Shown one piece after another: positions 1,685 through 60,766 of a stretch of DNA of 61,605 nt. The notes beneath the pieces were generated by a model, which was given only the letters and a program-made list of their open reading frames with translations, did no database searches and was not told the origin of the DNA. Position 1 is the stretch's first letter. Each line of letters starts with the position of its first letter. The position numbers and the translations under genes are program-made. Source of the DNA: Vicinamibacteria bacterium (GTDB lineage: Bacteria; Acidobacteriota; Vicinamibacteria; Marinacidobacterales; SMYC01); contig DASPGQ010000226.1 of NCBI GenBank assembly GCA_035620555.1, positions 1-61,605 of the forward strand. The letters are read 5' to 3'.

Positions 1685-2071
1685 CTAGTTCGTCCCCGAT
1701 CTCTGATCCGTCCTTTTCTTTCGCTCATACGCTTCCCTGAAGAGCTCGTAGTTCTGGCGGATGTAGAGGTTGTTCGGATCGATCTCCAGGGCCCGCTCGT
1801 ATTCGACATTGGCCTCGTCGAACTGCCCCGCCTGCTCGTAAGCCACGGCGAGATTGTTTCGGGCGCTCGCATTGCGAGGGTCGAGCTCTACCGCTTTCTC
1901 CCAACGGTAGATGGCTTCGCGCCACAAGCCTCGCTGCGCGACTTCGATGCCGAAGTAGACTTGCTTCTTGGCTTCGTTCTCGCGCTCGTCGGCAACGGCA
2001 TCGAGCGCGAGAGGCGCGGCGAGCAACGCTAGCACCAAGAGCGTGGTCAGTGGGCGGACGCTCGAGGACAA
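1685..2071 (-). CDS. Small secreted TPR-repeat protein
   Basis: 128 aa with a TTG start. Signal peptide LTTLLVLALLAAPLALDA. TPR-like repeats (AIYRWEKAVELDPRNASARNNLAVAYEQAGQFDEANVEYERALEIDPNN). Confidence 0.75.
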   Translation of the reverse strand: MSSSVRPLTTLLVLALLAAPLALDAVADERENEAKKQVYFGIEVAQRGLWREAIYRWEKAVELDPRNASARNNLAVAYEQAGQFDEANVEYERALEIDPNNLYIRQNYELFREAYERKKRTDQRSGTN

Positions 2072-2233
2072 CTCTACCTCGCTCCCAACAGAATCTTTGA
2101 GGTTCGCATCACAATTACGTGATGGCGACGGCAGAGGTATCGTAGCCCAGCTGGCAGGGACGGTGCAAGCAACTTCGTCGCCCTTCCGGGAGGGGCTTCG
2201 TCCCCGATTCCGTCTTCAGGAAAAGAGACGACC

Positions 2234-3310: not shown

Positions 3311-3353
3311 CGCGATGCCGGGTCGCGTGCCACCATATCGCTACACGATTCCC

Positions 3354-5855: not shown

Positions 5856-7172
5856 TTGAGCTCGAGCGAAGTTGCCGTGGTGGGCGCCGGTCTCGCCGGC
5901 TCGGAGGCGGCCTGGCAGCTCGCCAAGCGAGGCATTCCCGTACGCCTCTACGAGATGCGGCCTTTGGTCACGACGCCCGTTCACCGCACCGAGGGTTTCG
6001 CCGAGCTCGTCTGCAGCAACTCCCTGCGCTCCGATTCTTTGAATAGCGCACACGGGCTTCTCAAAGAAGAAATGCGCCGGCTCGGATCGCTCGTCATGGA
6101 AGCGGCCGAGCTCGCCCGCGTACCCGCGGGGCAGGCGCTCGCCGTCGATCGCGATCGGTTCTCCGAACACGTGACCCGGGCCGTACGGTCCGTTTCGGGG
6201 ATCACGTTCTTGCGGGAGGAAGTGCGCGCCGTTTCCGACGGCGGGCTCGTGATACTCGCGACCGGACCGCTCACTTCGGAGACCCTGGCGAGCTCGATCC
6301 GTACATTCACCGGTCGCGACTCCCTGTACTTCTACGACGCGGTGAGCCCGGTGGTTGAAGTGGAGAGCATCGACTTCAGCAAAGCCTTCCGCGCATCGCG
6401 TTACGGGAAGGGTGGAGACGACTACGTCAATTGTCCCATGGACCGGGTCGAGTACCTCCGTTTTCACGAGGCCTTGTCTGCCGCGGCGCGGGTCGATCTC
6501 CACGCCATCGACCAGGCACTCTACTTCGAGGGTTGCCTCCCCATCGAGGTCATGGCCCAGCGCGGGATCGACACCCTGCGGTACGGACCGATGAAACCCG
6601 TCGGCTTGATCGATCCCCGAACGGGAAAAAGACCTTACGCCGCGGTGCAGCTTCGACAAGACAACCTGGCGGCGACGCTCTACAACATCGTCGGTTTCCA
6701 AAACCAGTTGAAGTGGGGCGAGCAGAAGCGGATTCTGCGGATGATTCCCGGCCTCGAGCGCGCCGAGTTCTCCCGCTACGGAATGATTCATCGCAACACC
6801 TACGTCAACGCGCCCACTCTGCTCCGGCCGACTTTTCAGACACGCACGAGAGATTCGCTCTTTTTCGCGGGACAGATCTCGGGCGTCGAGGGCTATACGG
6901 AATCGGCCGCATCCGGGCTTCTCGCCGGCATCAATGCGGCGCGGTTGTCGCGGGGACTCGTTCCGGTCGTGCCACCGAGAACCACGGCTCTCGGCTCGCT
7001 TTGCCACTACATCTCGGAGGCCGATCCCGAGAATTACCAGCCGACGAACATCGCCTTCGGGCTTCTGCCGCCGCTCGAGACCCGCGTCAAGAGCCGGAGA
7101 GAACGCAAAGAAGCGCTGGTCGCACGCGCTCTCGCCGCCATGGACCGCTTCGTCGAAACGGCCGCAGCATGA
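5856..7172 (+). CDS. trmFO: Methylenetetrahydrofolate--tRNA-(uracil-5-)-methyltransferase TrmFO (Gid)
   Basis: TTG start. VAVVGAGLAGSEAAWQLAKRG FAD-binding fold, then TEGFAELVCSNSLRS, then FAGQISGVEGYTESAASGLLAG. Confidence 0.9.
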   Translation: MSSSEVAVVGAGLAGSEAAWQLAKRGIPVRLYEMRPLVTTPVHRTEGFAELVCSNSLRSDSLNSAHGLLKEEMRRLGSLVMEAAELARVPAGQALAVDRDRFSEHVTRAVRSVSGITFLREEVRAVSDGGLVILATGPLTSETLASSIRTFTGRDSLYFYDAVSPVVEVESIDFSKAFRASRYGKGGDDYVNCPMDRVEYLRFHEALSAAARVDLHAIDQALYFEGCLPIEVMAQRGIDTLRYGPMKPVGLIDPRTGKRPYAAVQLRQDNLAATLYNIVGFQNQLKWGEQKRILRMIPGLERAEFSRYGMIHRNTYVNAPTLLRPTFQTRTRDSLFFAGQISGVEGYTESAASGLLAGINAARLSRGLVPVVPPRTTALGSLCHYISEADPENYQPTNIAFGLLPPLETRVKSRRERKEALVARALAAMDRFVETAAA

Positions 7173-39495: not shown

Positions 39496-39861
39496 CTAGT
39501 AGGTCAGCGCTTCCACACGGTCCCGAACGTTCCACACGTAGATTTGATTCGGCCAGAAGTTGATGTGCAGCTGGTAGGCGACGTCGATGGAAGTGCGTTT
39601 CGTTTTCGCGTTCCGATCGACGCGGACTTTCTCCGCGAGCAAGGTGATCCCATAACCCTCCGCCAGCTCGACCACACGGCTTCGAATCGTCTCGGAGCTG
39701 TCCTGGACGGGTGCGTTCGCCGCGACGTTGAGATCGCCGAGAAACTTCAGGCGCACGACCACTGCGGGGGTGACCTGGGCGACGAAATAGGCGAGCACGA
39801 AAAGGAAGACCACTTCCAGAAGGGTCCGGACCCGAATCGCCCCCATGTGTCCAGATTTCAT
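39496..39861 (-). CDS. Hypothetical small membrane-anchored protein (DUF4845-like, tentative)
   Basis: 121 aa with one N-terminal TM (LLEVVFLFVLAYFVAQV) followed by a soluble domain of about 85 aa. The family call is from memory of DUF4845 architecture only. Confidence 0.55.
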   Translation of the reverse strand: MKSGHMGAIRVRTLLEVVFLFVLAYFVAQVTPAVVVRLKFLGDLNVAANAPVQDSSETIRSRVVELAEGYGITLLAEKVRVDRNAKTKRTSIDVAYQLHINFWPNQIYVWNVRDRVEALTY

Positions 39862-39949
39862 CAGCCAATTAGTTTCGAAGGCAGAGCCTCGCTAGAATGT
39901 CGCCGGGAACTCCGAATCTCGACTCGACGTTACGTCCATTCGTAAACCC

Positions 39950-40876
39950 ATGTCAATCGTCAAAGCCAGTGCTCTCACGGTTCGCTACGGAAGACACGAA
40001 GCGCTCTCCCATCTGGAACTGGAGATCCCCCGAGGCGTAACCGGTCTTTTGGGCCCGAACGGCGCGGGGAAGAGCACGCTGCTCAAGACACTTCTCGGCT
40101 TCTTGCGACCGAGCGCGGGAACGCTGTCGGTGCTGGGCGTGCCGGCACCAGAGGCAAGGAGCGCCGAGCTCCGGACGCGCCTCGGTTACTTTCCCGAGCG
40201 TTCGGTGTTGGTACCCGGCATGAGCGCCGTCGACACCGTCGCCCTCGCGGGAGAGCTCGGAGGCCTCAGGCGCACGGACGCACTCGAGAGGGCCCACGAA
40301 GCGCTCTGGTTCACCGGGCTCGGCGACGCACGCTATCGCCTGGTGGAGGAGTTCTCCACGGGTATGAAGCAGCGAACGAAGCTGGCCTGTGCTCTGGTTC
40401 ACGATCCCGACCTTCTGCTTCTCGACGAGCCGACCAGCGGGCTCGACCCTTCCGGCCGACGGCAGATGCTCGAGCTGGTTCGCGTCATCGGCGGCGCCGG
40501 TATCTCGGTGATCTTGTCGACGCATTTGTTGAACGACGTGGAGCAGGTCTCCGACGGGGTCGTCTTGCTCGACCGCGGTCGTCTGGTGCTCGAGGGACAG
40601 CTTTCTAGCCTGCGACAACCGACCGGGTGGGTCTTCGACCTCCGCGTGAGGGAAACCCGGCCTGGGGCGTTCAGCGAACGGCTGCGAGAGCACGGAATCC
40701 AGAGTACCGAGGATCGTGACGGCCTCCTTCGCGTGGAGCTGAACGGCGCCGCCACGCGGCCGCTATTCGAGCTCGCCCACCTGGCCGGAGCCGAGATCCG
40801 TCATCTGAAACGACACGAACGCAATCTGAAGGACACCCTCACCACCGCTCTCGACCAGAGCACCCACGCGGGCTGA
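39950..40876 (+). CDS. ABC transporter ATP-binding protein (ABC-2 subfamily), pair 1
   Basis: Walker A GPNGAGKST, signature FSTGMKQR, Walker B LLLLDEPTSGLD, H-loop STHLL. C-terminal accessory domain. Confidence 0.9.
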   Translation: MSIVKASALTVRYGRHEALSHLELEIPRGVTGLLGPNGAGKSTLLKTLLGFLRPSAGTLSVLGVPAPEARSAELRTRLGYFPERSVLVPGMSAVDTVALAGELGGLRRTDALERAHEALWFTGLGDARYRLVEEFSTGMKQRTKLACALVHDPDLLLLDEPTSGLDPSGRRQMLELVRVIGGAGISVILSTHLLNDVEQVSDGVVLLDRGRLVLEGQLSSLRQPTGWVFDLRVRETRPGAFSERLREHGIQSTEDRDGLLRVELNGAATRPLFELAHLAGAEIRHLKRHERNLKDTLTTALDQSTHAG

Positions 40877-41718
40877 TGCCACTTTACGATCGTTCCTACC
40901 AGAGAGTCTCGCGAACGCGCACGGCGCGGCCATCACGCGTGATCGCACTGGCTCGCGAGACGGTGAAGATGCTCCTGCGGCGGCGGGGACTTCTCGCGTT
41001 GCTTGCTTTCTCTTGGATACCGGCGCTCGTACGCGCCGTTCAGATCTATGCGAGTCATCAATTCCCTCAGGCTGCCGACTTCTTCTCGGTGAGCGCGGCG
41101 ACGTGGCAGGAGTTTCTCGGTCAACAAGTACGTTTGTTACCCGTCGTGCTCGTGAGCCTCTATGTGGGTGCCGGCGCCATCTCGTCGGACTTCGCCTCGG
41201 GCGCCTACGTGCTCTACCTCTCGAAACCCATTTCTCAACTCGACTACCTCGCCGGGCGGGCGCTTCCAGTGTTTGGGGCGATCTCCTTCGTGACGCTCGT
41301 GCCCGGGCTCGCTCTTCTGGCACTCGAGCTGACGATTGCGGGAGACGCCTCCATTCTTCGCGAGGGGCCTTGGCTCCCGGTTTCCATTGCCGCTTACAGC
41401 CTATGGCTCGGCCTCTACTTCACGATGCTCGTCCTCTCCATCTCGAGCCTCTCGCGAAGCGGCCGCGTCGCCGGGGCCGGTTTCGCCGCTCTCGTTCTCG
41501 GCACCGAAGTGGTACTTCGAGGCGCAGTCCAGAGATCCACGAGCACCGACCTGCCTTTCAGCCTGGGCATCGTGAGTGCGGCCGTCGACGCCGGGCATGT
41601 CTTCTTCCGAAGCGATTCCCGCTCGTCTTGGAGCTCGATTCTCGTCATGGCGCTTTCGATGGTCGTCTGTGCGCTCGTCCTGAGGCGGCGTCTGGCTTCT
41701 TCGGAGGTCGTCCAGTGA
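40876..41718 (+). CDS. ABC-2-type transporter permease, pair 1
   Basis: About 6 TM helices. The start shares a base with the upstream stop (TGATG). Composition typical of ABC-2 membrane proteins. Confidence 0.75.
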   Translation: MPLYDRSYQRVSRTRTARPSRVIALARETVKMLLRRRGLLALLAFSWIPALVRAVQIYASHQFPQAADFFSVSAATWQEFLGQQVRLLPVVLVSLYVGAGAISSDFASGAYVLYLSKPISQLDYLAGRALPVFGAISFVTLVPGLALLALELTIAGDASILREGPWLPVSIAAYSLWLGLYFTMLVLSISSLSRSGRVAGAGFAALVLGTEVVLRGAVQRSTSTDLPFSLGIVSAAVDAGHVFFRSDSRSSWSSILVMALSMVVCALVLRRRLASSEVVQ

Positions 41719-42644
41719 GCGTCATCGAGCTTCGTCGGGTCTCGCGCTGGTATGGAAGTGCCCTCGGACTGAGGCGAGTCGACCTCGATTTCGATCCGGG
41801 GGTAACCGCTCTGCTGGGCCCGAACGGCGCGGGCAAGTCGACGCTGATCCGAATCGTGGCCGGGCTTCTTCGGCCGAGCTCGGGCGCGGTCTCGGTGGCC
41901 GGAGAAGCACCTTTCGCGAACTCGCGAGTGTTCGAACGGCTCGGCGTCGTTCTCGAGGAGGGAGAGCTGCGACCGCAAGCCCGAATCAGCGTCTCGGATT
42001 GGCTCGTCTTTCTCCTGAGGCTCAACGGCTTCGCCGAAGCCCGGGCCCGAGAGCTCGCGACGAGCCGCCTCTCCGAGCTCGGCTTGCTCGAGGCGCAAGA
42101 TCGCAGCGTGACCACCCTCAGCCGGGGAATGAAGCAGAGGCTGCGGCTCGCGCAGGCCGCCGCCCACGATCCCGATCTGCTCTTGCTCGACGAGCCCTTG
42201 AGCGGCCTCGACCCCCTGGGCCGGCACGAGGTGATCGAGTGGCTGAGAGCTCAGGGCGAAAGAGGAAAGACAATCGTGGTCTCGAGCCACATCCTCCATG
42301 AGGTCGAGCTCATGACCCAGAACGTCGTGCTCATGGCCGAAGGCACCGTGCTCGCGAGCGGGAACCTCCGTGAGATCCGAGCGCTGATCGATTCCCACCC
42401 CCACCGCATCGCGATCCGGACACCGTCCCCCCGCGCGCTTGCACGGCGGCTGCTCGAGGCACCGGCGGTGCTATCGATCGAGTTCTCCGAGCAGCTCGGA
42501 CGGCTCGAGCTCGAGACCAACGATCCCGAGAGCTTCTACGCTTTCGTCTCCGCCCTCGTCCTCGAGGAGAACGCCGTGGTCGACGAGATCCAGTCGGCCG
42601 ACGACGATCTGGAATCCGTGTTTCGCTACCTGGTTGGCCCGTGA
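41715..42644 (+). CDS. ABC transporter ATP-binding protein (ABC-2 subfamily), pair 2
   Basis: ORF 41013..42644 trimmed to GTG 41715, which overlaps the permease stop (GTGA). Walker A GPNGAGKST, signature LSRGMKQR, Walker B LLLLDEPLSGLD, H-loop SSHIL. Confidence 0.88.
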   Translation: MSVIELRRVSRWYGSALGLRRVDLDFDPGVTALLGPNGAGKSTLIRIVAGLLRPSSGAVSVAGEAPFANSRVFERLGVVLEEGELRPQARISVSDWLVFLLRLNGFAEARARELATSRLSELGLLEAQDRSVTTLSRGMKQRLRLAQAAAHDPDLLLLDEPLSGLDPLGRHEVIEWLRAQGERGKTIVVSSHILHEVELMTQNVVLMAEGTVLASGNLREIRALIDSHPHRIAIRTPSPRALARRLLEAPAVLSIEFSEQLGRLELETNDPESFYAFVSALVLEENAVVDEIQSADDDLESVFRYLVGP

Positions 42645-43411
42645 GACTGGCTCCGGTCGCGCTCGTGGCGAAGTTCTCGTTCGAGCAGCTCCTATGGTCT
42701 CCTCGCACGCTCGCCGCTCTGCTCGTCGCCGCGGCGCCAGCGGGTCTCGCGAGTGCCTATCGAGTGGCTCTGTCGCTCGGTTACTCGGAAGCGCCCACGG
42801 CCTTTGAAACGTTCTCCGTGGTCACGGCAGCCGTCGGCTTTCAGTTCGTCGCACCGATGCTCGCCCTGTTCTATGCCAGCGGTGTCATCCTGGACGATCT
42901 CGAGGCGGGAACGTTGCCCTACCTCGCGACTCGGCCGCTGACGCGGACCGAGCTCCTCTCGGGAAAGATGCTCGGAAGCCTCACTCTGTGCCTCGTACTG
43001 TTCCTCCCCTCGATCGTTCTGGCATATTACGTCGCCCTTTCGGCAGAAGGTCTCGACGCAATCGGAGCTCGATTTGGAAGTCTCGTCCTCGATCTCCTGG
43101 CGGGAGTGTTGGGAATCGCGGCCTACCACGGACTTTTCGCGATGCTCGGCACTCTGGTCTCGAGGCCTCTCCTGGTGGGGCTGTTCTTCGTATTCGGATG
43201 GCAGGCGGGCGCCACCTTCGTGCCCGGCTCGGCTCGCTACCTGACGATTACCCATTATCTCTATGCGCTCGTATCTCAGGAGAACCTGTCGGCCGCGAGT
43301 CGGGTCTTCGGACAGCGTCCGGGTGTCGGCCTCGCCCTTTTGGCGTTGATGGCCATTATCGCGGTCACTCACGGAGTCTCCCTCTGGCGATTCGGCCACA
43401 GGGAGCTGTGA
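42641..43411 (+). CDS. ABC-2-type transporter permease, pair 2
   Basis: GTG start overlapping the upstream stop (GTGA). About 6 TM helices. Confidence 0.75.
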   Translation: MRLAPVALVAKFSFEQLLWSPRTLAALLVAAAPAGLASAYRVALSLGYSEAPTAFETFSVVTAAVGFQFVAPMLALFYASGVILDDLEAGTLPYLATRPLTRTELLSGKMLGSLTLCLVLFLPSIVLAYYVALSAEGLDAIGARFGSLVLDLLAGVLGIAAYHGLFAMLGTLVSRPLLVGLFFVFGWQAGATFVPGSARYLTITHYLYALVSQENLSAASRVFGQRPGVGLALLALMAIIAVTHGVSLWRFGHREL

Positions 43412-43481
43412 GTCCTCCTCGGTTGCGGCATAATGGAACTTGGGGTTTCGAGCTTACGTCTTGGGGGCGGAGGGTTTTTCG

Positions 43482-44504
43482 ATGAACCGAACGAAGAAAA
43501 CGCGCTGGATACTCACCATCGCGGCAACCACGCTGGTCTCGGGGCTTTGTATCGGAGCGCTGGCGCACGTGGCGCGCCGGAGCGAAAGCCAGGAGAGCCT
43601 GCCCCTGACCGAGTCCCACCTGAAGTGGGTTCCCAGCTCGGCCACGCTCGCGGGCCATGTGAACCTTCGAGCCCTCGCCGAGAGTCCTCTGTTCGAGGCA
43701 TGGCGTCTTCGCGAAGAGGCCAGGACCGGGCTCGAGGCATTGAGCGAGTTGAGGCGACGGACGGGAATCGATCCGCTGACGGACCTCGACACCGCAACCT
43801 TCTCCGTGGTCGAGTCAGCACAGGCATCGCCGAATTCCCCGCCCGAGCATTGGGGCGTTTCCGTTCGGGGGGCGATCGATGGCACGCACCTGCTGCGGGA
43901 GCTTCGCAAACACGGTGAGGTCGTCTCCGGCGAGTACGAAGGCATTGCGGTGCACGAATTCACCGACCGACGCGGACGTGAGCTGGCCTTCGCGGTGGCA
44001 AGCGCCGATACACTCCTCGTGGGAGGGCCCGATTACCTGCGTCAAATGCTCGATGCCGGAGCCGGCAAAGAGCCGAGCGTGGGCCTCGAGACTCTCCTCG
44101 AAGGCATCGACGGACCGAGCCTCAGAAACGAGACTTTCTGGGTGGTTGGCAAAGCCTCGAAGACGATCGGAAGCCTCCTTTCGACTGGCCCCGGGTCCGA
44201 TCTGCCGTCGATTCGGTCGTTTGCGCTCTCGGGTCGAATCGCCCGCGACCTCCAGCTGAAGGCTCAGGGGAAAGCATCCGACGCCGTCGCGGCGCAGCAG
44301 CTTGCCGACGTGGCCCGAGGAATGGCGGCTCTTGGTCGACTCCGAGAGGGTATGGACCCCACGTTCCTCAGCGTCCTCGAATCGGTCTCGATCGCACAGC
44401 TCGACGATCGGATCGAGATATCCGTGACGGTGCCGAATGCGGCGATGGAGCGTCTTCTGGAGAGCAATCTCGAGAAAGCCCACCCCGATGGTAATTTACG
44501 CTAA
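43482..44504 (+). CDS. Hypothetical membrane-anchored periplasmic protein
   Basis: ORF trimmed to ATG 43482 (GGCGGAGGG upstream). MNRTKKTRWILTIAATTLVSGLCIGALA signal-anchor. No family recognised. Last gene of the ABC cluster. Confidence 0.6.
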   Translation: MNRTKKTRWILTIAATTLVSGLCIGALAHVARRSESQESLPLTESHLKWVPSSATLAGHVNLRALAESPLFEAWRLREEARTGLEALSELRRRTGIDPLTDLDTATFSVVESAQASPNSPPEHWGVSVRGAIDGTHLLRELRKHGEVVSGEYEGIAVHEFTDRRGRELAFAVASADTLLVGGPDYLRQMLDAGAGKEPSVGLETLLEGIDGPSLRNETFWVVGKASKTIGSLLSTGPGSDLPSIRSFALSGRIARDLQLKAQGKASDAVAAQQLADVARGMAALGRLREGMDPTFLSVLESVSIAQLDDRIEISVTVPNAAMERLLESNLEKAHPDGNLR

Positions 44505-45844
44505 TCGACGATGAGGCCCGGTACCTCGGGGATCGTTTGGTGCCCCAAGCTCGGCTCGACGAGACGCTCCTGGGGCCGGGCAAAGAGGTAACCCTGCCCG
44601 TAGGGAATCCCGAGCTCGAGGAGCGTGTGGAGCTCTTCGACTCGCTCGACTCCCTCGGCGATGACATCGGCACCAATATTGGTCGAGAGTGCTTGGATCG
44701 CTTTTAGCATTTCGCGCTTCACGAAGCTGGTATGGATGTCGCGCACCATCATCAAGTCGAACTTCAGGTACCGGGGGTTGAGGCGGACGATCTTCTCCAG
44801 GCCTGAGTAGCCGGCACCCATGTCGTCGATGGCGATGGAGAATCCCATGTCGGTGAACGTCTTCATCGCGTCGAGAAACAGGTCGTAGTTCTCGATCGCC
44901 AGCCGCTCGGTAATCTCCAGTACGATTCCTGAAGGGGAGAGCCCCTTCTGGTCGAGCAACCCGACGATCCGCTCTCCCTGGAACTCGGGGTCGCGAAGGG
45001 TCGTCGGTAACAGATTCACGAAGAGCTTGTGCCCTTGTTTGAGACGCGAGGCATTGCTGAAGGCGCGGCGGCGGCAGAGTCGGTCCAGCTCGAACTGTAG
45101 ATTCGCATCGCTGGCCAGGTCGAACATGACCTGAGGGCTCTCGTAGCGCGCGGCCCGGGGGCCGCGCGTCAGCGCCTCGAAACCGATCGTTTCGAGAGAC
45201 GTCAAGTCCAGAATCGGCTGGAAGACCGTGCGGACGTCCTCGTTGAGGATAATCCTCTGAAGGAGCTCCTTGCTCTTGGCCGCGAGGCGGTATTCCTGGT
45301 ATCTTGACATCGTTCGTGCCTCGTCGATGAGCTGGAGCACGAGTCGTTCCTCGTTGATGAGCGGATTGTGTAGCACCAGGCCGTAGCCGACCGCGACCTT
45401 GAACTTCCCCTTCAGATAGGGGCTGGTCATCCGCGACAGGTGCCGCGTCAAGTCGGCGTGAATCCGCTCGGCCATCGCCTCGAGCTCCGCCGCGCCCGAC
45501 AAGAACACGAGAAACGTATCCCCCCCGGGCTCGCTGACGGTGACGAGATCGTCGCGACGGAATTCGGAGGGCTTGTTGAGCATGAGGTTGGTGAGGAGAC
45601 TTCGGACCTGGTCGTGAATGAGATCTCCGTAGTCGTGCTCGATCTGGGCGAGATTGGATGCCTCGACGTAGAGAAGGGCGAGGCATCGATTCTCGGCGAG
45701 CATCTCGTGAATTTCGTCGGCATGCTCCCGGTAACACCGAATGGGCTCTCGCGCGGCGCGTACGCTTACGGACTCTGCGGAAGACTGCGCGCGTTCCGCC
45801 GCCTCGAAGACATTGCCGATCACGGCGGGCCTGGCAAGGCTCAC
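44501..45844 (-). CDS. Degenerate-GGDEF plus EAL domain protein (c-di-GMP phosphodiesterase type)
   Basis: EAL domain: FQPILDL...IGFEALTRG...VNLLP...VLEITER...AIDDMGAGYSGL...KFD...VIAEGVE...GQGYLFARP. Upstream domain carries GGDTF in place of GGDEF. The track ORF reaches TTG 46033, but codons 45845-46033 have reduced GC3. I prefer GTG 45844, preceded by GGGGAAG. Confidence 0.8.
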   Translation of the reverse strand: MSLARPAVIGNVFEAAERAQSSAESVSVRAAREPIRCYREHADEIHEMLAENRCLALLYVEASNLAQIEHDYGDLIHDQVRSLLTNLMLNKPSEFRRDDLVTVSEPGGDTFLVFLSGAAELEAMAERIHADLTRHLSRMTSPYLKGKFKVAVGYGLVLHNPLINEERLVLQLIDEARTMSRYQEYRLAAKSKELLQRIILNEDVRTVFQPILDLTSLETIGFEALTRGPRAARYESPQVMFDLASDANLQFELDRLCRRRAFSNASRLKQGHKLFVNLLPTTLRDPEFQGERIVGLLDQKGLSPSGIVLEITERLAIENYDLFLDAMKTFTDMGFSIAIDDMGAGYSGLEKIVRLNPRYLKFDLMMVRDIHTSFVKREMLKAIQALSTNIGADVIAEGVERVEELHTLLELGIPYGQGYLFARPQERLVEPSLGHQTIPEVPGLIVD

Positions 45845-46047
45845 GAGGTCTTCCCCTGGATCATGCCGCGATTCGACTCCCGGGCGACAACCTAGCAAGG
45901 CCCGTGCCCACGAGTTCCCGCCGGTGCGGGGATCGTGGATGGTATTGATTCCGTGGAGGTTGACCTCAGCGCCTGGCGGGAGTCGCGAAGGCGCCCTCGT
46001 ACCCAGGTGTGGTGTATGTCCCACGAATCCCAACGCCCTTATGCCGT

Positions 46048-46053
46048 TATAAT
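46048..46053 (+). promoter_or_regulatory. Perfect -10 hexamer TATAAT upstream of the cNMP-binding gene
   Basis: TATAAT at 46048-46053, GGGAAGG Shine-Dalgarno at 46066-46072, ATG at 46081. No convincing -35. Confidence 0.4.
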
Positions 46054-46080
46054 GTGTCCCCCCAGCGGGAAGGTTAGTCG

Positions 46081-46587
46081 ATGCTGTCCTTGATGGAGAT
46101 CATCCTCGCGCTCAAGAGGACTCCAATGTTCCAGGGAGTGCCCGGTGAGGGATTGAAGCGATTGTCCGATTTCATCCAGGAGAAGACCGTCCGGGCCGGC
46201 GAAGTGATTTTCCGGGAGGACGAGCTCGGCGAGGAGATGTACATCGTGCGGTCCGGCCGGGTCAGCGTACATCAGGAGGTAAAGGGGGGACGCGTGTCGT
46301 TGCTCGTAGTGGAGACGGGAGGCTACTTCGGCGAAATGGCGATCATCGACGACCTTCCACGCTCCGCCTCGGCGACGGCCGAAGTCGACACCAGCCTGTT
46401 CGTTCTTCACAAGACCGACTTCCGCTCGGCCGTCCAGGACTACCCGGACATCGCCTTCGAGATCCTGCGTGAGTTCAGCAGACGGTTGCGGCACGCCGAC
46501 CGCCGGCACCGCGAGCTGATGGACGAAGCCAATGCCGTTTCGACGATTCGAGCCAAAGAGGACCGTTCGGGAAAATCCGAGCCCTGA
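46081..46587 (+). CDS. Stand-alone cyclic-nucleotide-binding domain protein (no DNA-binding domain)
   Basis: LKRTPMFQGVPGEGLKRLSDF...GEVIFREDELGEEMYIVRSGRV...GGYFGEMAIIDDLPRSASATA is the canonical cNMP-binding beta-roll with its phosphate-binding cassette. The C-terminus has no HTH. Confidence 0.88.
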   Translation: MLSLMEIILALKRTPMFQGVPGEGLKRLSDFIQEKTVRAGEVIFREDELGEEMYIVRSGRVSVHQEVKGGRVSLLVVETGGYFGEMAIIDDLPRSASATAEVDTSLFVLHKTDFRSAVQDYPDIAFEILREFSRRLRHADRRHRELMDEANAVSTIRAKEDRSGKSEP

Positions 46588-46644
46588 CGGCGGAACCGGA
46601 GCTGGACTTCCGGTCGAACGGGAGCCGCACGAGGCGTCAGGGCT

Positions 46645-49257
46645 TTGAAACTCGCGAGAACCCTCGGCATCCTCGAAGCCGAGGTCGAATTGACGCTCCT
46701 GCTCGGGCTCACCCACTTCCTCGTGGCGGGGGCGCACTCTCTGTTCGACATCGGCGCGACGGCCCTTCTGATCGGCAACCTTGGACCGGATGCTTTGCCC
46801 CAGGTCTATTCGGCCAGCGCGATCGTATTGATCTTTGCGGGCCTCTTCGTGACTCCCCTCGTCGATCGCCTCGACCGTTCCCTGTTTTTCAGCCTGTTGC
46901 TCGCCGGTTCCGCGGCTCTAGTGCTCCTCACCTCGCAGGGCTCCGCCTACCGCGCTCTATACGTCGCGAGCTACCTGATGAAAGGGCTCTTCTTCCTTCA
47001 GTACTGGCTATTCGCGGGAGATCTTCTGGATCTGCGCCAGGCGAAGAGAGTATTCCCGGTGTTGCTCGGCTTCAGTCTCACCGGTGGCCTGGTGGCGAGT
47101 ATGGCCGCGGCGCAGATCCCACGATTTCTTCCCTCGGAGAGCCTGCTCGCTTTCTCCGGAGCCCTGATGGTTGCGGCGATCGTTCCCGTTCAATGGATAT
47201 CCCATCGCTGGCGCCGGCGCTTGCGTTACGCCGGAACGAGATCCCAGAGAGTCCCCTCCCTGGTTCACCGGATCAAGTCCGACATCGATGTCTCGTTCCA
47301 ATCGCCGCTGGTCAGAGCGCTTTCGCTCTACGTGTTTCTTCTCGCGCTGCTCGCTCAGATCCTCGATTTTCTGCTGGGCAAGGCCGCTCACGCCGCCTTC
47401 GCCGCGCCGAGTGGATCCGTTGCCGTCGAGGGACTCGCGAGCTTCTACGCTCTGCTGAACGCCGTGGTCATCGGCGTGGGAGCCCTCGTCCAGTTCTTCA
47501 TCGCCAACCGTCTCATCAACTCCGCGGGCGTCACCCGGGCTCAACTTCTCGCACCCATCACTTTTTTCGTCGTCTTCGCCAGCGCCAGCGTCGTGTGGCT
47601 CGCGGGCGGTGCTTTCTTCTTCACCGTCGTCGCCGCGAGAGCGATCCAGAGAGCATTTCGCATCTCGCTCGTTCGAACGTCGACCGACTTGATCTACAAC
47701 GCGATCCCGGGCGAGCGTCGCGGCCGCGCCAAGGCTTTCAAGGAGACACTCCTCGAGCCACTGGGCGTGCTCGCCGGCGGCCTGTTGCTCATGGCCAGCT
47801 CCGAGCTCCCACTTCAGTACGTTCTCGGCGGGGCGACGGGACTCTCGATCGTTCTCTTCGCCGCCACCGGCAAGCTCAAGGAACACTACATCGCGAGCCT
47901 GGTCCTGGTGCTCAAGGAGAGAAGTCGTTATCGATTCGCTTTTCCTTCGTTCGTCTCGCGGCAGGCCAGAACGCCTGCGGGGAAGACCGGCGTGAGTGGA
48001 CTGCGACGAGCTCTCGATGACGACGAGGCGTCGATCCGGCTCCTGGCCGTGGAAGTCGCCTCGGAGCTCAGAGAGCCGGAGGCCGCAACTCTGCTCGTCG
48101 ACCGGGTTCGCGACGAGCCCGATCCCCAGGTGCGCTCGCGAATGGTCTCGGCACTCGGAAGGATGGTTCGCAACCGCGGAGATCGCGCCGAGAGCGGATC
48201 CGCTACCGAAGTCGACCCCGCGGTGCGCGCCAGCGCCATGGAAACGCTGGCCCGGGACACGCTTCTTGCCGAGATGGGCAGGGAGACAAACGTGTCGCAG
48301 CCTAGCCGGGATAGCGCGCCTCGACGAGTCCTGGAGAACGGTGCGACGAGGAAACGCGCGCTCTTCGCGCTCGCGCGGAGCCAGGAAGAGGGGGCGCTCG
48401 AAAGGCTCGTTCATTACCTCGAGGAAGGCGACGGAGCGACACGACACGTCGCGGCGCGAGCGCTCGAGGGCTGCGGCGAGGCCGCGGTCGGCGTTCTCAC
48501 GCTCGCGCTCTGGAGCTCCGACGTCGAGGCACGCCGTTACGTCATCCGCGCCCTCGATCGAATCGGGACATCGAGCGCGCGCCAAGCGCTCCTGCCGGTT
48601 CTATCTCTGGAGGCGGAAGAGGCCTATTACGAGCTGCTGCGGCTCCAGGCGATTCAACATCTGCCGAGCAACCCCGCACTGGGCCTCCTCGAGGACTCCA
48701 TCGCCCAGAGAGTCCAGCTCGCTCGGGGAAACGCCCACCAGGTACTCAGAGCGGTGTTCATGGGTGAGCCGGGGATGCGTCTGATCCTCAGCAACTTGAA
48801 TCATCCCGACCGCTTCATTCGATCGAGCGCCCTCGAGGCGCTCGAGGTCCGCGTCGACACCGCCCTTCTCGGTGGGGTCTTGCCGCTATTCGAGCACGAC
48901 AGCCCGCGAGCGGTCGCCGAGCAAGGCGCCGAGCTCTTCGATTTCCCTTCGCGCTCCCCTCTCGATGCCCTTCTCGAGCTCACGCGCCATCGCTCGGCCT
49001 GGATTCGAGCGTGCGCCGTCTACGCCGTCGGCCATATGGGAACTCTCGCGTGCCTCGAACGACTCGAACAGCTTACGAGAGACGATTACGAGCTCACGAG
49101 GCTCAACGCCGTCGAAGCGATCGGACGGCTGGGAGACGAAACCAGCCTCCGGTTGCTCGGTCGCCTCGAGACCGGCGGGGACGAGACGATGAAAGCCTAC
49201 ACGCTCGAGGCCATCGAGGCGATCCGTCGCCGGCAGTCGGCACGGTCGGCGGGATAG
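46645..49257 (+). CDS. TLC/Npt-like (ATP:ADP-antiporter-family MFS) membrane domain fused to C-terminal HEAT repeats, paralog 1
   Basis: TTG start. Polytopic N-terminal half with YWLFAGDLLDLRQAKRVFPVLLGFSLTGGLVAS (compare TLC family LFWxFANxxxxxxEAKRxY...G). C-terminal HEAT-like repeats (DPQVRSRMVSALGRM, DVEARRYVIRALDRIG, SAWIRACAVYAVGHMG, TRLNAVEAIGRLGD). Confidence 0.75.
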   Translation: MKLARTLGILEAEVELTLLLGLTHFLVAGAHSLFDIGATALLIGNLGPDALPQVYSASAIVLIFAGLFVTPLVDRLDRSLFFSLLLAGSAALVLLTSQGSAYRALYVASYLMKGLFFLQYWLFAGDLLDLRQAKRVFPVLLGFSLTGGLVASMAAAQIPRFLPSESLLAFSGALMVAAIVPVQWISHRWRRRLRYAGTRSQRVPSLVHRIKSDIDVSFQSPLVRALSLYVFLLALLAQILDFLLGKAAHAAFAAPSGSVAVEGLASFYALLNAVVIGVGALVQFFIANRLINSAGVTRAQLLAPITFFVVFASASVVWLAGGAFFFTVVAARAIQRAFRISLVRTSTDLIYNAIPGERRGRAKAFKETLLEPLGVLAGGLLLMASSELPLQYVLGGATGLSIVLFAATGKLKEHYIASLVLVLKERSRYRFAFPSFVSRQARTPAGKTGVSGLRRALDDDEASIRLLAVEVASELREPEAATLLVDRVRDEPDPQVRSRMVSALGRMVRNRGDRAESGSATEVDPAVRASAMETLARDTLLAEMGRETNVSQPSRDSAPRRVLENGATRKRALFALARSQEEGALERLVHYLEEGDGATRHVAARALEGCGEAAVGVLTLALWSSDVEARRYVIRALDRIGTSSARQALLPVLSLEAEEAYYELLRLQAIQHLPSNPALGLLEDSIAQRVQLARGNAHQVLRAVFMGEPGMRLILSNLNHPDRFIRSSALEALEVRVDTALLGGVLPLFEHDSPRAVAEQGAELFDFPSRSPLDALLELTRHRSAWIRACAVYAVGHMGTLACLERLEQLTRDDYELTRLNAVEAIGRLGDETSLRLLGRLETGGDETMKAYTLEAIEAIRRRQSARSAG

Positions 49258-49261
49258 TTGG

Positions 49262-50008
49262 TTAGGTCTCCTCGAGCTGTCCGGCGACCGCCCTCGCCGC
49301 CTCCGACACCTTCTCGGGATCGCCCAGGTAGTAATGTCGGATCGGCACCAGATCGTCGTTCAGCTCGTATACCAGGGGAACTCCCGTCGGGATGTTCAAC
49401 TCGGCGATCTCGTCATCGGGGACGTGATCGAGGTACTTCACCAGAGCTCTGAGACTGTTGCCGTGAGCCGCGATCAGGACTCTTCGTCCCGATGCGACTT
49501 CGGGGGCGATCGATTTTCGCCAGCACGGGAGGAAGCGCTCGACCGTTTCCTTGAGACTCTCCCCCAGAGGTACCTCGGCGGGCGCCAGAGAGGCATAGCG
49601 AGGGTCGCGGCGGGGATTTCGCGGATCGGACGGATCGAGCGGGGGAGGCGGCGTATCATAGCCTCGCCGCCAGGTCTGGACCTGTTCCAAACCATAGCGC
49701 TTCGCGGTCTCTGCCTTGTTCAAACCCTGGAGAGCTCCGTAGTGGCGCTCGTTCAAACGCCAGCTTCGGTGGACGGGAATCCACATGAGGTCCATCTCGT
49801 CGAGAACGAGCCAGAGCGTCCGTATCGCTCGTTTGAGCACCGAAGTGAACGCCACGTCGAAGAAATAGTCCTGAGCGGCCAGGGTTCGGCCCGCCTCGCG
49901 AGCCTCGGTGACGCCTTTGTCGGTCAGGTCCACATCGGTCCATCCGGTGAAGCGATTGGCTTTGTTCCAGAGACTCTCGCCGTGACGAAGGAGCACGAGT
50001 TTCTTCAT
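49262..50008 (-). CDS. gpmA: 2,3-bisphosphoglycerate-dependent phosphoglycerate mutase
   Basis: ORF trimmed to ATG 50008. [29 protein letters not shown]...[17 protein letters not shown]...[10 protein letters not shown]. Confidence 0.95.
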
Positions 50009-50018
50009 GGCGGCTCGT

Positions 50019-51623
50019 TCATGCCGTCGCCGGCGCGGCGGCACGCACGTCGTCGTCGACGTCCCCGGCAAATCGCTCGAAGTTCTTGTCGAACATGCCC
50101 GCGAGCTTTCTGCCCTGGGCATCGTAGGCATCGGGATCCGACCAGGTCGAGCGGGGATCGAGGATTCCCGGAGGTACATCGGGACAGGATTGCGGGACTT
50201 GGAACCCGAAGATAGGATCGGTGGTGGTCGGGACGGCGTCGAGGGCCCCGCTCAACGCGGCGCGAACGATGGCCCGGGTGTGCGACAGCTTCATTCGGTG
50301 ACCGGAGCCGTAAGCGCCTCCCGTCCAACCGGTGTTCACGAGCCAGGTCACGAGCCGGTGCCGACTCAACCGCTCGCCGAGCATCTTGGAGTAGACCGCG
50401 GGCTTGCGCGACATGAAGGGGGCACCGAAGCAGGCGCTGAAGGTGGCTTGAGGCTCGTCGATACCCCGCTCGGTGCCGGCGACCTTCGCCGTGTAGCCCG
50501 AGAGGAAATGATACATGGCCTGTTGGGGATTGAGCTTCGCGACCGGTGGGAGCACGCCGAACGCGTCGGCTGCCAGCATGAGAACGGTTTTTGGATGCCC
50601 GGCCCAGCCGGTTCTGGAGACGTTGGGAATGTGAGAAACGGGATAGGACGCACGCGTGTTCTCGGTGAAACTGTCGGAGTCGAGGTCGAGCCGCCGGGTC
50701 TTGGTATCGATGACGACGTTCTCGAGGATGGTTCCGAACATTCGGGTGGTGGCGTAGATTTCCGGCTCGCCCTCGGAAGACAGCCGAATGACCTTGGCAT
50801 AGCAACCGCCCTCGAAGTTGAAGACCCCCTGGTCGCTCCATCCATGCTCGTCGTCACCGATGAGGACACGGTCGGGATCGGCGGATAGCGTCGTCTTCCC
50901 CGTCCCCGACAGGCCGAAGAAGATGGCCACGTCGTCCTCGTCCTTGCCGAAGTTGGCGGAACAGTGCATCGGCAGCACGCCGTCGGGAGGGAGCAAGTAG
51001 GTCATGACGGTCAGGATCGACTTCTTGATCTCCCCGGCATAGTCGGTGCCTCCGATGATGACTTCCTTGCGTGCGAAGTTGAGCATGACGAACACTTCCG
51101 AGCGGGTCCCGTCCTCCTCGGGAACGGCCTGGAACCGGGGAGCGCAGATCACGGTGAACTCGGGGACGTGAGACGCGAGCTTGTCGGGGTTCTTCTCGCG
51201 AACGAACATGTTCCTGGCAAACAGGTTGTGCCACGCTCGCGTGTTGATGATCCGAATCGGAATCTTGTAGTCGGGGTGCGTTCCGACATAGCAGTCCTGG
51301 ACGTAGAGATCGCGACCCCTGAGGTACGCGGTCAGCCTGGCTCGCAGTCTGTCGTACTGCGACGTCTCGCAAGGCTTCGCGACGTCCCACCAGATGTGTT
51401 TTTCGCTCCGCGGCTCGCGAACGATGTATTTGTCGTTGGGTGAGCGGCCCGTATATTGGCCGGTATGAACGACGAGAGGGCCCCGGTGAGCGATGAAGCC
51501 CTCGCGGCGCTGAATGGCATGCTCGTAGAGGGCTGCGCTCGAGAGGTTCCACCAGACGGTGGCGTCGAAGATTCCGTGGTTATCGAGTCCGAAACGGCTG
51601 CGAAAAGCTCCCTGTTCCTCCAT
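50019..51623 (-). CDS. pckA: Phosphoenolpyruvate carboxykinase (ATP)
   Basis: [15 protein letters not shown]...[13 protein letters not shown]...LIGDDEHGW...[10 protein letters not shown]. Confidence 0.95.
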
Positions 51624-57997: not shown

Positions 57998-60766
57998 ATG
58001 CCTTTCTTGCGACTCGTGAACGTCCACCCCGGTGAGGGTCGTCGTGTCTTCGGGATGTTTGCCCTTCTCGGGCTCATCATCGCCACGAGCTACATCTTGA
58101 AGCCGGTTCGGAGCTCTGTTTTTCTGAGCCAGTTCGGCGCCGAGAGACTTCCCTACGTCTATCTCCTGGTAGCCCTGGTGCTCGGATTCGTCGCCGCGGG
58201 GTTCGCCAGGCTTTCCTCGCGCACGAACGTGGTTCGGCTCTTCGTCGGTGCCGCGGCGTTGTTCGCTTCCCACATCGTCCTGTTCTGGATCGCCCTCGTG
58301 ATGGATTGGATTTGGACGGGATTCGTCTTCTACGTCTGGGTGAGCATCTTTACGGCGCTCATGCCGTCACTGTTTTGGCTCCTCGCGAACTACGTCTTCT
58401 ACTCCAACGAGGGCCGACGCCTGTTTCCGGTGGTCATGGCGGGAGGGCTGCTCGGTTCCATTGCCGGCGGGGCGCTCACGTCGCTCCTCGTACCCGTCGT
58501 GGGAACATCCGGATTACTTCTTTCCGCGGCCGGTCTCCTGATCCTCGTCGCGTTCCTCGTTCGCTGGAACGTGGCCCGAGAGGCGGAGCGCATCACCGAG
58601 CGTCGCTTCGACCTCGCTCGGAGCGAGCGAAGCCACGCCGTCTCGGATGAATCGAGTCCCCTGGCGCTCGTCGCCCGGTCGCGCTACCTCAGACTCCTCG
58701 CCGCCCTCATCGTGCTTGCGACTCTGGTCTCCACGCTGGTCGACTACCAGTTCAACGTTGCCGCCGAGGACAGCTTCCCGACCCGAGACGCGCTCACTCG
58801 GTTCTTCGGAACGTTCTTCGCAGGGATCAACGTCGTGGCTTTCGCACTCCAGCTGCTCGTGGCAGGACGACTGCTCGGGCGGTTCGGGGTCGCCGCCGGT
58901 CTCGTTCTGCTACCCGCGGCTCTGCTCGGGAGCTCCTTGTTTCTTTTCGCCATGCCGTCGCTTGTGAGTGCCGCGCTCGTCAAGGCCTCCGATGACGGTC
59001 TCAGCAACTCGGTGAATCGGGCAAGTGTGGAGATCTTGTATCTGCCCGTCTCCCTGGCGTTGAAGAATCGGCTCAAGGCGTGGCTCGACATGTTCGTCGA
59101 GCGCGTCAGCCGCGGCCTGGGTGGCCTCACCTTGCTGGCCGCGACGACCCTGCTGTCGATGCCGCCAACTCAGATCGGGCTCCTCGTCGCTTTCCTGACC
59201 GTTCCCTGGCTCGTTCTCGTCGTGTGGTTGAACCGCGAGTACGTGAACACCTTTCGTGACTCCATCGCGCGACGAGACATCACCGACCTCACGGCGCACC
59301 TGACCGACCCCGCGAGTCTGTCCGTTTTCCAACAGGTCCTCGCGGGCGACGATACCCGGGAGATCCTGTACGCTCTCGAGCTTCTCGCCGGAACCGAGGA
59401 TGAGCTGCTGCTGCGACAGGCGGCGAGCTTGACGGATCATCCGAGCGCGGAAATCCGAAGAGCCGCATTCCGGCTGCTGCGCGGGGCGGCGGCTTCGCCG
59501 ATCGACCAGCTGGAACGCCGCGTCCTGGACGAAGAGCCACGGGTGGCGGCCGAGGCATTTGCGCTCTTCCTTCGCGTCGATCCCGACGGCGCCAATCGTA
59601 CGCTCGACTTCGTGATCGAGCGAAACGACGTCGAGAGAATCCGGGCAGTACTCGATTGTCTCGAGCAGTCGGAGACGACCCTTTCCGACCTCGTGCTCGA
59701 GCGCATCGTTCGCGACCGCGTGTACGATGAGACGGCCGGGGCGCGAATGCTGGCAGCACAAGCCCTCGGATTCTTGACGACGCCGCCCGACGCGCTCCCG
59801 AGCTGGCTGGTGAGATTACTGGGCGACCCGGACATCGAAGTCGCGCGCCGCGCCGCCCGCAGCGCCGGCCGGTTGCGCGTCACCGAGGCTTTCCCTGCAC
59901 TGGTCGAGCAGCTTCGCCGGCCTCCGCTCCGGGTCGAGGCGCGACGGGCTCTCGCTAGGTACGGGCCCGAGGCTCTCGACGGGCTCTCGGGTTTGCTTCG
60001 GGACGACACTCAGGAAATCGATCTTCGCCGGGCCATTCCTCAGGCGGTCGCGGAGATCGACGGGCAGGACGGAGTCGAGGTGCTGTTCGACATCCTCCCT
60101 CAGGACGATCAGCGCCTCCATTATCAAGCCATCAAAGGACTTTCCAAGCTTCGATCGCGCAATCCCACCTTGCGCTTCCCCCGTACCGAGGTCGAGCGCC
60201 TCGTCGAGCACGAGCGGGCCGCGCTCCTCGATCTCGCGCGCCTCACGGCGTCGATTCGCCGTTACCCGCCCGAAGAGGGCACGAGCCATGCGCTCCTGCT
60301 CCTCGTCCTCGACGAGCGCATCGAGTTCACCCGAGAACGGATCTTTCGCCTCCTCGGTCTTCAGTATGCCCAAGGCGAGATCGCGAGCGTCTTCAACCGC
60401 CTGGCGCACGCGCGACCGGCGATCCGCTCCGCCGCGCTCGAGTACCTCGCCAATCTGCTGTCGAAGAGCCATCGACGCAGCCTGTTGCCTCTGCTCGAGG
60501 CGGAGAGCTCACCTTCGATCTACCGGCACGGCCTCGAGCTCACGGGGGTTCGTGCTCCCGCGTTTGCCGAAGCATTGGGGCGACTCGCGCTCTCCACCGA
60601 CGACTGGCTCGCGGCATGCGCCATCACTGTGGCGGGTGACAAGGGCCTGGCGGCGAGCCTCCCCGGGCTCGAGGAGCTACGGGAGCACAAGTCGCCTCGG
60701 GTTCGCGAGGCGGTGAAGCATGCCGTGAAGCCCGCTTTGGGCTCACGCGGCCCGGGTCGGCCTTGA
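57998..60766 (+). CDS. TLC/Npt-like (ATP:ADP-antiporter-family MFS) membrane domain fused to C-terminal HEAT repeats, paralog 2
   Basis: FYVWVSIFTALMPSLFWLLANYVFYSNEGRRLFPVVMAGGLLGSIAGG (TLC-type signature region). About 11-12 TM helices. C-terminal HEAT-like repeats (SAEIRRAAFRLL, DIEVARRAARSAGRL, RPAIRSAALEYLANL, SPRVREAVKHAV). Confidence 0.75.
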   Translation: MPFLRLVNVHPGEGRRVFGMFALLGLIIATSYILKPVRSSVFLSQFGAERLPYVYLLVALVLGFVAAGFARLSSRTNVVRLFVGAAALFASHIVLFWIALVMDWIWTGFVFYVWVSIFTALMPSLFWLLANYVFYSNEGRRLFPVVMAGGLLGSIAGGALTSLLVPVVGTSGLLLSAAGLLILVAFLVRWNVAREAERITERRFDLARSERSHAVSDESSPLALVARSRYLRLLAALIVLATLVSTLVDYQFNVAAEDSFPTRDALTRFFGTFFAGINVVAFALQLLVAGRLLGRFGVAAGLVLLPAALLGSSLFLFAMPSLVSAALVKASDDGLSNSVNRASVEILYLPVSLALKNRLKAWLDMFVERVSRGLGGLTLLAATTLLSMPPTQIGLLVAFLTVPWLVLVVWLNREYVNTFRDSIARRDITDLTAHLTDPASLSVFQQVLAGDDTREILYALELLAGTEDELLLRQAASLTDHPSAEIRRAAFRLLRGAAASPIDQLERRVLDEEPRVAAEAFALFLRVDPDGANRTLDFVIERNDVERIRAVLDCLEQSETTLSDLVLERIVRDRVYDETAGARMLAAQALGFLTTPPDALPSWLVRLLGDPDIEVARRAARSAGRLRVTEAFPALVEQLRRPPLRVEARRALARYGPEALDGLSGLLRDDTQEIDLRRAIPQAVAEIDGQDGVEVLFDILPQDDQRLHYQAIKGLSKLRSRNPTLRFPRTEVERLVEHERAALLDLARLTASIRRYPPEEGTSHALLLLVLDERIEFTRERIFRLLGLQYAQGEIASVFNRLAHARPAIRSAALEYLANLLSKSHRRSLLPLLEAESSPSIYRHGLELTGVRAPAFAEALGRLALSTDDWLAACAITVAGDKGLAASLPGLEELREHKSPRVREAVKHAVKPALGSRGPGRP

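Follow-up and report, generated by a model that had tools for sequence, protein, structure and literature searches.

Genomic Context and Gene Organization

The locus considered here is situated in a 61,605-nt stretch of DNA (hereafter "the window," positions 1 to 61,605 of contig C226, DASPGQ010000226.1) from the 7.0-Mb metagenome-assembled genome (MAG) of a bacterium of the class Vicinamibacteria (Acidobacteriota). It contains a gene for a stand-alone cyclic-nucleotide-binding protein of 168 aa (positions 46081–46587, plus strand), followed on the same strand by a gene for an 870-aa protein (46645–49257) in which an NTT/TLC-like carrier domain is joined to a C-terminal HEAT-repeat solenoid. 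A gene for a GGDEF-EAL protein is transcribed divergently from the minus strand. An earlier note, made from the DNA sequence alone, had suggested that the first two products interact as the split form of a single polypeptide known from other bacteria, and all open reading frames (ORFs) named in it were recovered at the same coordinates in the ORF listing of the window. As argued below, we consider it rather probable that the two genes form an operon in which a soluble receptor for cyclic nucleotide monophosphates (cNMPs) serves as the detached cNMP-sensing subunit of an NTT-HEAT carrier. For comparison, loci were collected from species-representative genomes (35) and from metagenome assemblies (four) and designated L with a number; their ORFs were searched with the three window proteins.

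A Soluble Cyclic-Nucleotide-Binding Protein With an Intact Cassette

The Pfam model cNMP_binding (PF00027) matches residues 35–120 of the 168-aa protein with a score of 77.9 bits (cut-off 27.5; E-value 5.9e-22). As expected from the earlier description of a protein devoid of an output domain, this cyclic-nucleotide-binding domain (cNBD) was the only Pfam domain found. A helix-turn-helix, which is required of CRP family members, was detected with neither Pfam nor NCBIfam models, and the NCBIfam models for CRP and FtrB align by their N-terminal part only, with scores far below their cut-offs. With CRP/FNR-type and other bacterial cNBD proteins, the 168-aa protein has the fold and the FGE...R[ST]A cassette in common, but it has no helix-turn-helix or other output domain; its chain extends about 45 residues past the beta-barrel.

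The phosphate-binding cassette FGEMAIIDDLPRSA occupies residues 83–96 (positions 46327–46368, plus strand) and includes Glu85, Arg94, and Ser95. In an alignment of 20 sequences including that of the window, the mean column identity of the cNBD is 69%, and all 20 sequences agree in the cassette residues F83, G84, E85, P93, and R94. Position 95 is occupied by Ser or Thr in 15 sequences, by Ala in one (L018), and by Pro in the remaining four. Judged from its sequence, the cassette is an intact, canonical pocket of the cAMP/cGMP type, so that binding of cAMP or cGMP is predicted. c-di-GMP was also considered as a ligand and was rejected because the cassette is of the canonical cAMP/cGMP type. The host genome carries three class III nucleotidyl cyclase genes and, consequently, a ligand can be made. 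It also holds 15 matches to PF00027, and stand-alone cNBD proteins occur elsewhere in it as well.

A Diverged NTT-HEAT Carrier

The membrane part of the 870-aa protein (residues 1 to about 432; 46645–47940, plus strand) was assigned to the NTT/TLC-like carriers, with twelve helices of the major facilitator superfamily (MFS) type, from hhalign, AlphaFold2, and Foldseek results. It had been described in the earlier note as "TLC-like" and as a paralog of the protein encoded at 57998–60766 of the same window. Both statements hold, though the relationship is distant. The N-terminal 440 aa do not match the Pfam model TLC (PF03219) even at an E-value of up to 1, and a search of PDB sequences with a profile of the carrier domain yielded no match even at an E-value of 10. 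The same Pfam model matches the N-terminal domains of eight of 17 orthologs, with a best E-value of 2.5e-5, and the 57998–60766 protein with an E-value of 1.4e-14. In a BLASTP comparison, the two window proteins share 23% identity over the membrane part (E-value 2e-9), and a second, collinear match extends over their HEAT regions. Profile alignment with hhalign links the carrier domain to NTT-HEAT and NTT-HEAT-cNBD proteins over 420 columns (probability 100%, E-value 4.4e-49), and the loop motifs RQAKRLFP and RRGRAKAF are common to both.

The structural model points in the same direction. AlphaFold2 predicted 12 long helices (pLDDT 77, pTM 0.79), and the best four matches of this model among PDB entries in Foldseek, 9j3m, 9j3n, 9j3l, and 9j3j, are all NTT structures (AtNTT1 and Chlamydia pneumoniae NTT1), which outrank the generic MFS transporters. 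The ligand-bound structures 9j3m, 9j3n, and 9j3l gave query-normalized TM-scores of 0.71–0.76 (E-values of 1e-9 to 1e-8) and apo 9j3j gave a TM-score of 0.52 (E-value 2e-7). The window protein shares the 12-helix MFS topology with these canonical transporters, but sequence identity is only about 15% and they have neither HEAT repeats nor a cNBD partner. Thus, the carrier domain expected of an NTT-HEAT protein is recognized at the level of profile and fold and not by single-sequence Pfam matching. C-terminal to it, as in the NTT-HEAT family, a cytoplasmic HEAT-repeat solenoid is found (residues about 445–870; 47977–49257, plus strand, including the stop codon). HEAT_2 matches it in three stretches between residues of about 450 and 851 (E-value 1.9e-23), with strong matches to HEAT structures of the alphaRep and PBS-lyase type.

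The pronounced divergence of the membrane domain raises the alternative that it no longer transports, and that the 870-aa protein is a membrane scaffold or "transceptor" whose HEAT repeats recruit the cNMP receptor for signaling. Such a loss of transport would be in line with a membrane domain that stays below every Pfam threshold and lacks any match among PDB sequences, and with the long stem of 1.22 substitutions per site that leads to this protein and its orthologs in the carrier tree. On the other hand, the twelve helices and the NTT-like fold are retained in the model. Furthermore, the loop motifs RQAKR(L/V)FP and RRGRAKAFK are invariant in orthologs down to 39% identity, and so are many charged residues within the membrane (D35, K113, D241, K246, R339, R344, and D348), as would be expected if a transport cycle were at work. 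We therefore regard the scaffold as unlikely, albeit the least unlikely of the alternatives considered here, and continue with an NTT-HEAT carrier under the control of a separate cNMP receptor.

Junction of the Two Genes

An overlap of 14 nt between the two genes is seen in 15 of 18 relatives, where a TTG codon (cTTGAAACTCGCTAA) located 14 nt before the stop of the cNBD gene opens the carrier gene. This TTG, a rare start codon, is retained in the clade down to about 47% identity (around positions 6001–6014 in L012 to L032 and at 5001–5014 in L008). Exceptions are one subclade with an ATG start of the carrier gene and one locus with a 4-nt GTGA overlap. The conserved 14-nt overlap onto a TTG start points to translational coupling, and this arrangement suggests a fixed stoichiometry of both products.

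In the window, the carrier is likewise opened by a TTG codon, at position 46645, and the gap of 57 nt between the two genes that had been reported earlier was borne out (46588–46644, plus strand). The window and L011, which is 90% identical, differ from the other relatives in having a different, longer tail of the cNBD protein and this 57-nt spacer, while the TTG and its context are kept. In these two loci, the cNBD and carrier ORFs share one frame, and the spacer, which is in frame with both genes, is free of stop codons after the TGA, so that one TGA and 19 sense codons lie between them (46585–46644). In the other relatives, the two ORFs overlap in different frames. Read-through of the TGA would yield an N-terminal cNBD fusion, but the shared frame is probably a matter of chance, which would produce it in roughly one of five cases.

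Association of cNBD and Carrier Across Genomes

Upstream DNA is available for 22 distinct related loci (46–90% identity; Vicinamibacteria, "Marinacidobacterales"), and in 20 of them a cNBD gene immediately precedes the carrier gene; the pairing anticipated in the earlier note is thus kept in relatives. The two exceptions are L007, which has no cNBD gene, and L031. Of 151 genomes sampled from the class, 22 carry an ortholog of the carrier (E-value of 1e-60 or lower), among them 16 of 17 from the family of the window, four of six from a second family, and the single genome of a third. None was found in the others sampled, for instance in 0 of 27 and 0 of 39. The upstream-type carrier is therefore a lineage-specific paralog. 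In L031, only the first ~53 cNBD residues are present (5868–6026), out of frame and overlapping the start of a 35%-identical carrier; the cause is either a deletion or misassembly of this long-read MAG.

The carrier orthologs at 38–90% identity bear HEAT annotations only. The next tier of homologs, at about 25% identity and 950–1030 aa in length, mostly carries PF00027 as well. In total, TLC/MFS, HEAT, and cNMP_binding annotations were found in a single chain in about 30 distant homologs of the 870-aa protein. Together with published examples (Major et al., 2017), these bear out the earlier statement that single polypeptides with a TLC-like domain, a cNMP-binding domain, and HEAT repeats exist. 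In all eight fused proteins scanned, the cNBD stands at the extreme C-terminus, behind the carrier domain and the HEAT repeats. Among the best-scoring database entries for the 168-aa protein are several TLC-HEAT proteins, 1220 aa long, that end in two cNBDs; because the ranking of this representative-library search is led by multi-cNBD proteins via summed scores, the nearest relatives cannot be read from the ranking alone.

Hence, the same domains are linked in three configurations. The upstream arrangement is that of the window, a cNBD gene directly 3' of the carrier gene is typical of distant homologs in Terriglobia and other Acidobacteriota, and the fused arrangement, with three domains in one chain, occurs in Actinomycetota. 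The first two coexist in the host genome, which encodes two further NTT-HEAT paralogs with a downstream cNBD gene. On contig C277 (L062), a carrier ORF (1813–4737) is followed by a cNBD ORF (4741–5175), and on contig C614 (L063, 2003–6581) the downstream partner is an ORF with two cNBDs. The phosphate-binding cassette is degenerate in each of these three cNBDs but intact in the upstream one. More generally, the Glu and the Arg-Ser/Thr pair are no longer present in the downstream-type partners, both in the host genome included, and the fused cNBDs have the same canonical type of cassette as the window receptor. A 921-aa ORF on contig C586 (L061, 1560–4322) matches the HEAT end and the cNBD of the fusions with its C-terminal half (hhalign 96%); its N-terminal half is not NTT, and its cNBD groups with the fused type (support 96/90).

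The linkage in three configurations supports the assignment of the 168-aa protein as the sensing subunit of the carrier. Given the fusions elsewhere, the two products very probably work together, as far as domain architecture can tell. Conversely, one might assume that the adjacency is without functional meaning and that the cNBD protein is a free cAMP buffer or receptor that came to share the operon by chance. The further stand-alone cNBD proteins among the 15 PF00027 matches of the genome would fit this assumption, as would L007, a relative with a carrier and no cNBD gene. However, L007 falls within the clade, so that its cNBD gene was probably lost secondarily. Moreover, a chance association is difficult to reconcile with three independent arrangements of the same two domains across phyla, one of them a fusion, and with the conserved coding overlap that joins both genes. 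It is accordingly improbable, and a functional receptor-carrier pair is retained here.

The Divergent EAL Gene and Its Control Region

The longest ORF on the opposite strand (44501–46033, minus strand) encodes an EAL domain (PF00563, E-value 2.4e-51). All catalytic motifs (EALTR, FVN, EITE, IDDMG, KFD, EGVE, and GQG) are present in the window protein and are kept in 13 orthologs as E[AG]L[TSA]R, FVN, E[IVF]TE, DD[MT]G, KFD, EG[IV]E, and GQG. The GGDEF domain (PF00990) fails its threshold with 21.2 bits against a cut-off of 23.8; its signature reads GGDTF in the window and HGD[VTI]F, YGDTF, or EGDTF in relatives. These findings agree with the earlier description of a degenerate-GGDEF/EAL gene, whose product, from its motifs, is probably active as a c-di-GMP phosphodiesterase and carries a dead GGDEF domain. 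Caulobacter PdeA (CC3396) is an example of a GGDEF-EAL phosphodiesterase with a degenerate GGDEF domain. The complete EAL motifs and the degenerate GGDEF motif are shared with this type of enzyme; in contrast to it, the GGDEF domain here lies below the Pfam cut-off and even the GG is missing in most orthologs (HGDVF), which makes GTP binding uncertain.

It had also been suggested that positions 45845–46033 are regulatory DNA rather than the 5' end of the EAL gene, and several observations speak for this. The GC content at third codon positions (GC3) of codons 1–63 of the long ORF is about 0.55–0.80, compared with 0.82 for the remainder, and three 1-nt indels relative to the 90%-identical L011 occur between ~45910 and 46000; together, these features indicate that the first 63 codons are non-coding. 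Protein conservation of the EAL orthologs begins at "AVIGNVFE," and a GTG codon at 45844, preceded by AGGGGAAG, is kept in L011. The start of the EAL gene is thus most likely GTG 45844 and not 46033, which yields a predicted 447-aa protein (44501–45844, minus strand) and leaves a divergent intergenic region of 45845–46080. Within this region, a block of ~65 nt (45935–46000) is near-identical between the window and L011, the two being close genomes and the only ones compared for it, and is flanked by sequence with indels.

The perfect TATAAT noted earlier at 46048–46053 (plus strand) is present and resembles the -10 box of a promoter for the cNBD-carrier operon. Such -10-like boxes sit 13–63 nt 5' of the cNBD start in 17 of 19 relatives, as TATAAT, often in the form GGTATAATG (12), TAGAAT (four), or TATAGT (one), and this conservation argues against a chance occurrence. 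A consensus scan of the divergent region for a full sigma-70 -35/-10 pair found none and no -35 element, and neither an Rfam family nor a terminator was found there. In L016, L013, L008, L018, and L009, the TATAAT lies only 13–17 nt before the ATG, a spacing that points to leaderless or near-leaderless cNBD mRNAs. The leader of the window mRNA would, by contrast, comprise about 20 nt and contain the Shine-Dalgarno-like sequence GGGAAGG (46067–46073, plus strand), 7 nt 5' of the cNBD ATG.

Of 20 related loci, 15 have an EAL ortholog as the divergently transcribed neighbor, at carrier identities down to 47%. It is absent from the other five, namely from one short contig and from four loci of one subclade (L022, L025, L026, and L027), in which the cNBD-carrier pair persists beside ilvBNC. 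In these four loci, ilvB, ilvN, and ilvC are the neighbors, ATG is the start codon of the carrier gene, and PRP[ATN]S replaces PR[ST]A in the cassette. Among the loci compared, no EAL gene was found near downstream-type or fused loci. In L016, L024, and L030, all from long-read MAGs, the EAL ortholog is split into two overlapping ORFs, which are either frameshift pseudogenes or the result of homopolymer sequencing errors.

This neighborhood raises the question of whether the actual partner of the receptor is the EAL phosphodiesterase, with cAMP controlling c-di-GMP turnover and the carrier being merely co-transcribed. Apart from the dead GGDEF domain, the EAL protein lacks any sensor domain, its adjacency is frequent, and the single subclade without an EAL neighbor has also exchanged R[ST]A for RP[ATN]S in its cassette. 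Nevertheless, the cNBD-carrier pair persists without the EAL gene in five loci, the cNBD gene overlaps the carrier gene and not the EAL gene, and fusions of cNBD and carrier are common, with no EAL gene at the fused or downstream-type loci. As EAL-bearing loci are confined to a single family-level lineage, the adjacency may also be inherited synteny. We consider an EAL-directed receptor to be quite improbable. The EAL gene is a frequent but dispensable neighbor of the cNBD-carrier pair, which we continue to view as the functional unit, and cross-talk between c-di-GMP and cNMP signaling is suggested by the neighborhood only.

Further neighbors include genes for an ABC ATPase, an ABC-2 permease, and a protein of 340–354 aa without Pfam match upstream of the EAL gene (39496–44504), which are also present in L008 and L009. 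A His_Phos_1 gene and an ATP-PEPCK gene are convergently arranged 3' of the carrier (49262–51623) and have counterparts in L008 only.

Origin of the Upstream Arrangement

The upstream-type carriers are monophyletic in the carrier-domain tree, with a support of 100 in the SH-like approximate likelihood ratio test (SH-aLRT), and sit on the long stem mentioned above. Together with the single-cNBD fusions, they fall on one side of a branch with an SH-aLRT value of 99; the downstream-type, double-cNBD, and 57998–60766 proteins fall on the other side. The nearest relatives of the upstream-type clade are therefore single-cNBD fusions, which supports the view of the 168-aa protein as a detached sensing subunit.

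The cNBDs themselves are less informative. A quick tree placed the upstream cNBDs beside the fused cNBDs with a support of 42, and in a more careful tree their placement was unsettled (39/88). A single clade of all carrier-associated cNBDs was not rejected in an approximately unbiased (AU) test (delta lnL 0.32, p 0.34). As the fusion order is carrier-HEAT-cNBD, the window locus does not represent a simple fission of neighboring domains; either fission plus relocation or independent recruitment may account for it. In a more elaborate version of the latter, an NTT-HEAT carrier descended from an ancestor in which the C-terminal cNBD was lost would have gained the upstream cNBD in a second, independent recruitment, making cNMP control convergent. 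The module would further be wired to the c-di-GMP phosphodiesterase through the shared divergent control region, so that cAMP/cGMP and c-di-GMP signaling would meet at one carrier. We regard this combined scenario as doubtful, somewhat more so than the scaffold discussed above.

Relation to Known NTT-HEAT Proteins and Proposed Function

The idea of a pairing between cNBD and NTT-HEAT proteins is not new. Major, Embley, and Williams described a monophyletic NTT-HEAT clade whose genes are accompanied by a cNBD gene a few nucleotides downstream or encode three-domain NTT-HEAT-cNBD fusions, and proposed that cAMP tunes ATP uptake, while stating that the function is unknown (Major et al., 2017, Genome Biol Evol 9:480, PMC5381601). 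The window locus shares with these systems the NTT/TLC carrier domain, the C-terminal HEAT solenoid, the PF00027 cNBD, and the logic of an operon. It departs from them in gene order, as only a downstream gene or a C-terminal fusion was described there and the cNBD gene is located upstream here. In addition, its carrier stays below the Pfam TLC threshold, is lineage-restricted, and is accompanied by a divergent EAL gene. The association of cNBD and carrier that characterizes the family is thus present in an order other than those described there, and the locus is a lineage-specific variant of a known, functionally uncharacterized module.

In the model that we favor, the operon would be transcribed from the conserved -10 box and yield a soluble cNMP receptor and an inner-membrane NTT-HEAT carrier. 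The receptor would be the detached counterpart of the C-terminal cNBD in NTT-HEAT-cNBD fusions, would bind cAMP or cGMP through its intact phosphate-binding cassette, and may dock on the HEAT solenoid or on the cytoplasmic face of the carrier. Docking would then couple the cellular level of cyclic nucleotide to the activity of the carrier, in either direction, the substrate being probably a nucleotide or another anionic solute.

Several points weigh against this model. Contact between the cNBD protein and the carrier is something we infer. The order of the genes differs from that of the domains in the fusion, and the cNBD trees, with the low support values given above, do not show descent from carrier-associated cNBDs. 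L007 keeps the carrier without a cNBD gene, and in the host genome itself the ancestral overlap has been replaced by a 57-nt spacer. A carrier so highly diverged, without a match to Pfam TLC or to PDB sequences, leaves nucleotide transport not assured, and a literature search found no later characterization of any NTT-HEAT member.

NTT-HEAT carriers occur widely among free-living bacteria, and none of them has an established substrate or role. What the present locus adds is that the link between cNBD and carrier survives three gene arrangements, two of them within the host genome. In this genome, receptors with intact and with degenerate cassettes partner different paralogs, which argues for sub-functionalization, and the contrast between the cassettes shows which pair is suited to a test of cAMP binding. 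With its small soluble receptor and a separable HEAT domain, the split pair is also handier than a fusion for pull-down experiments, isothermal titration calorimetry, and co-structure work.

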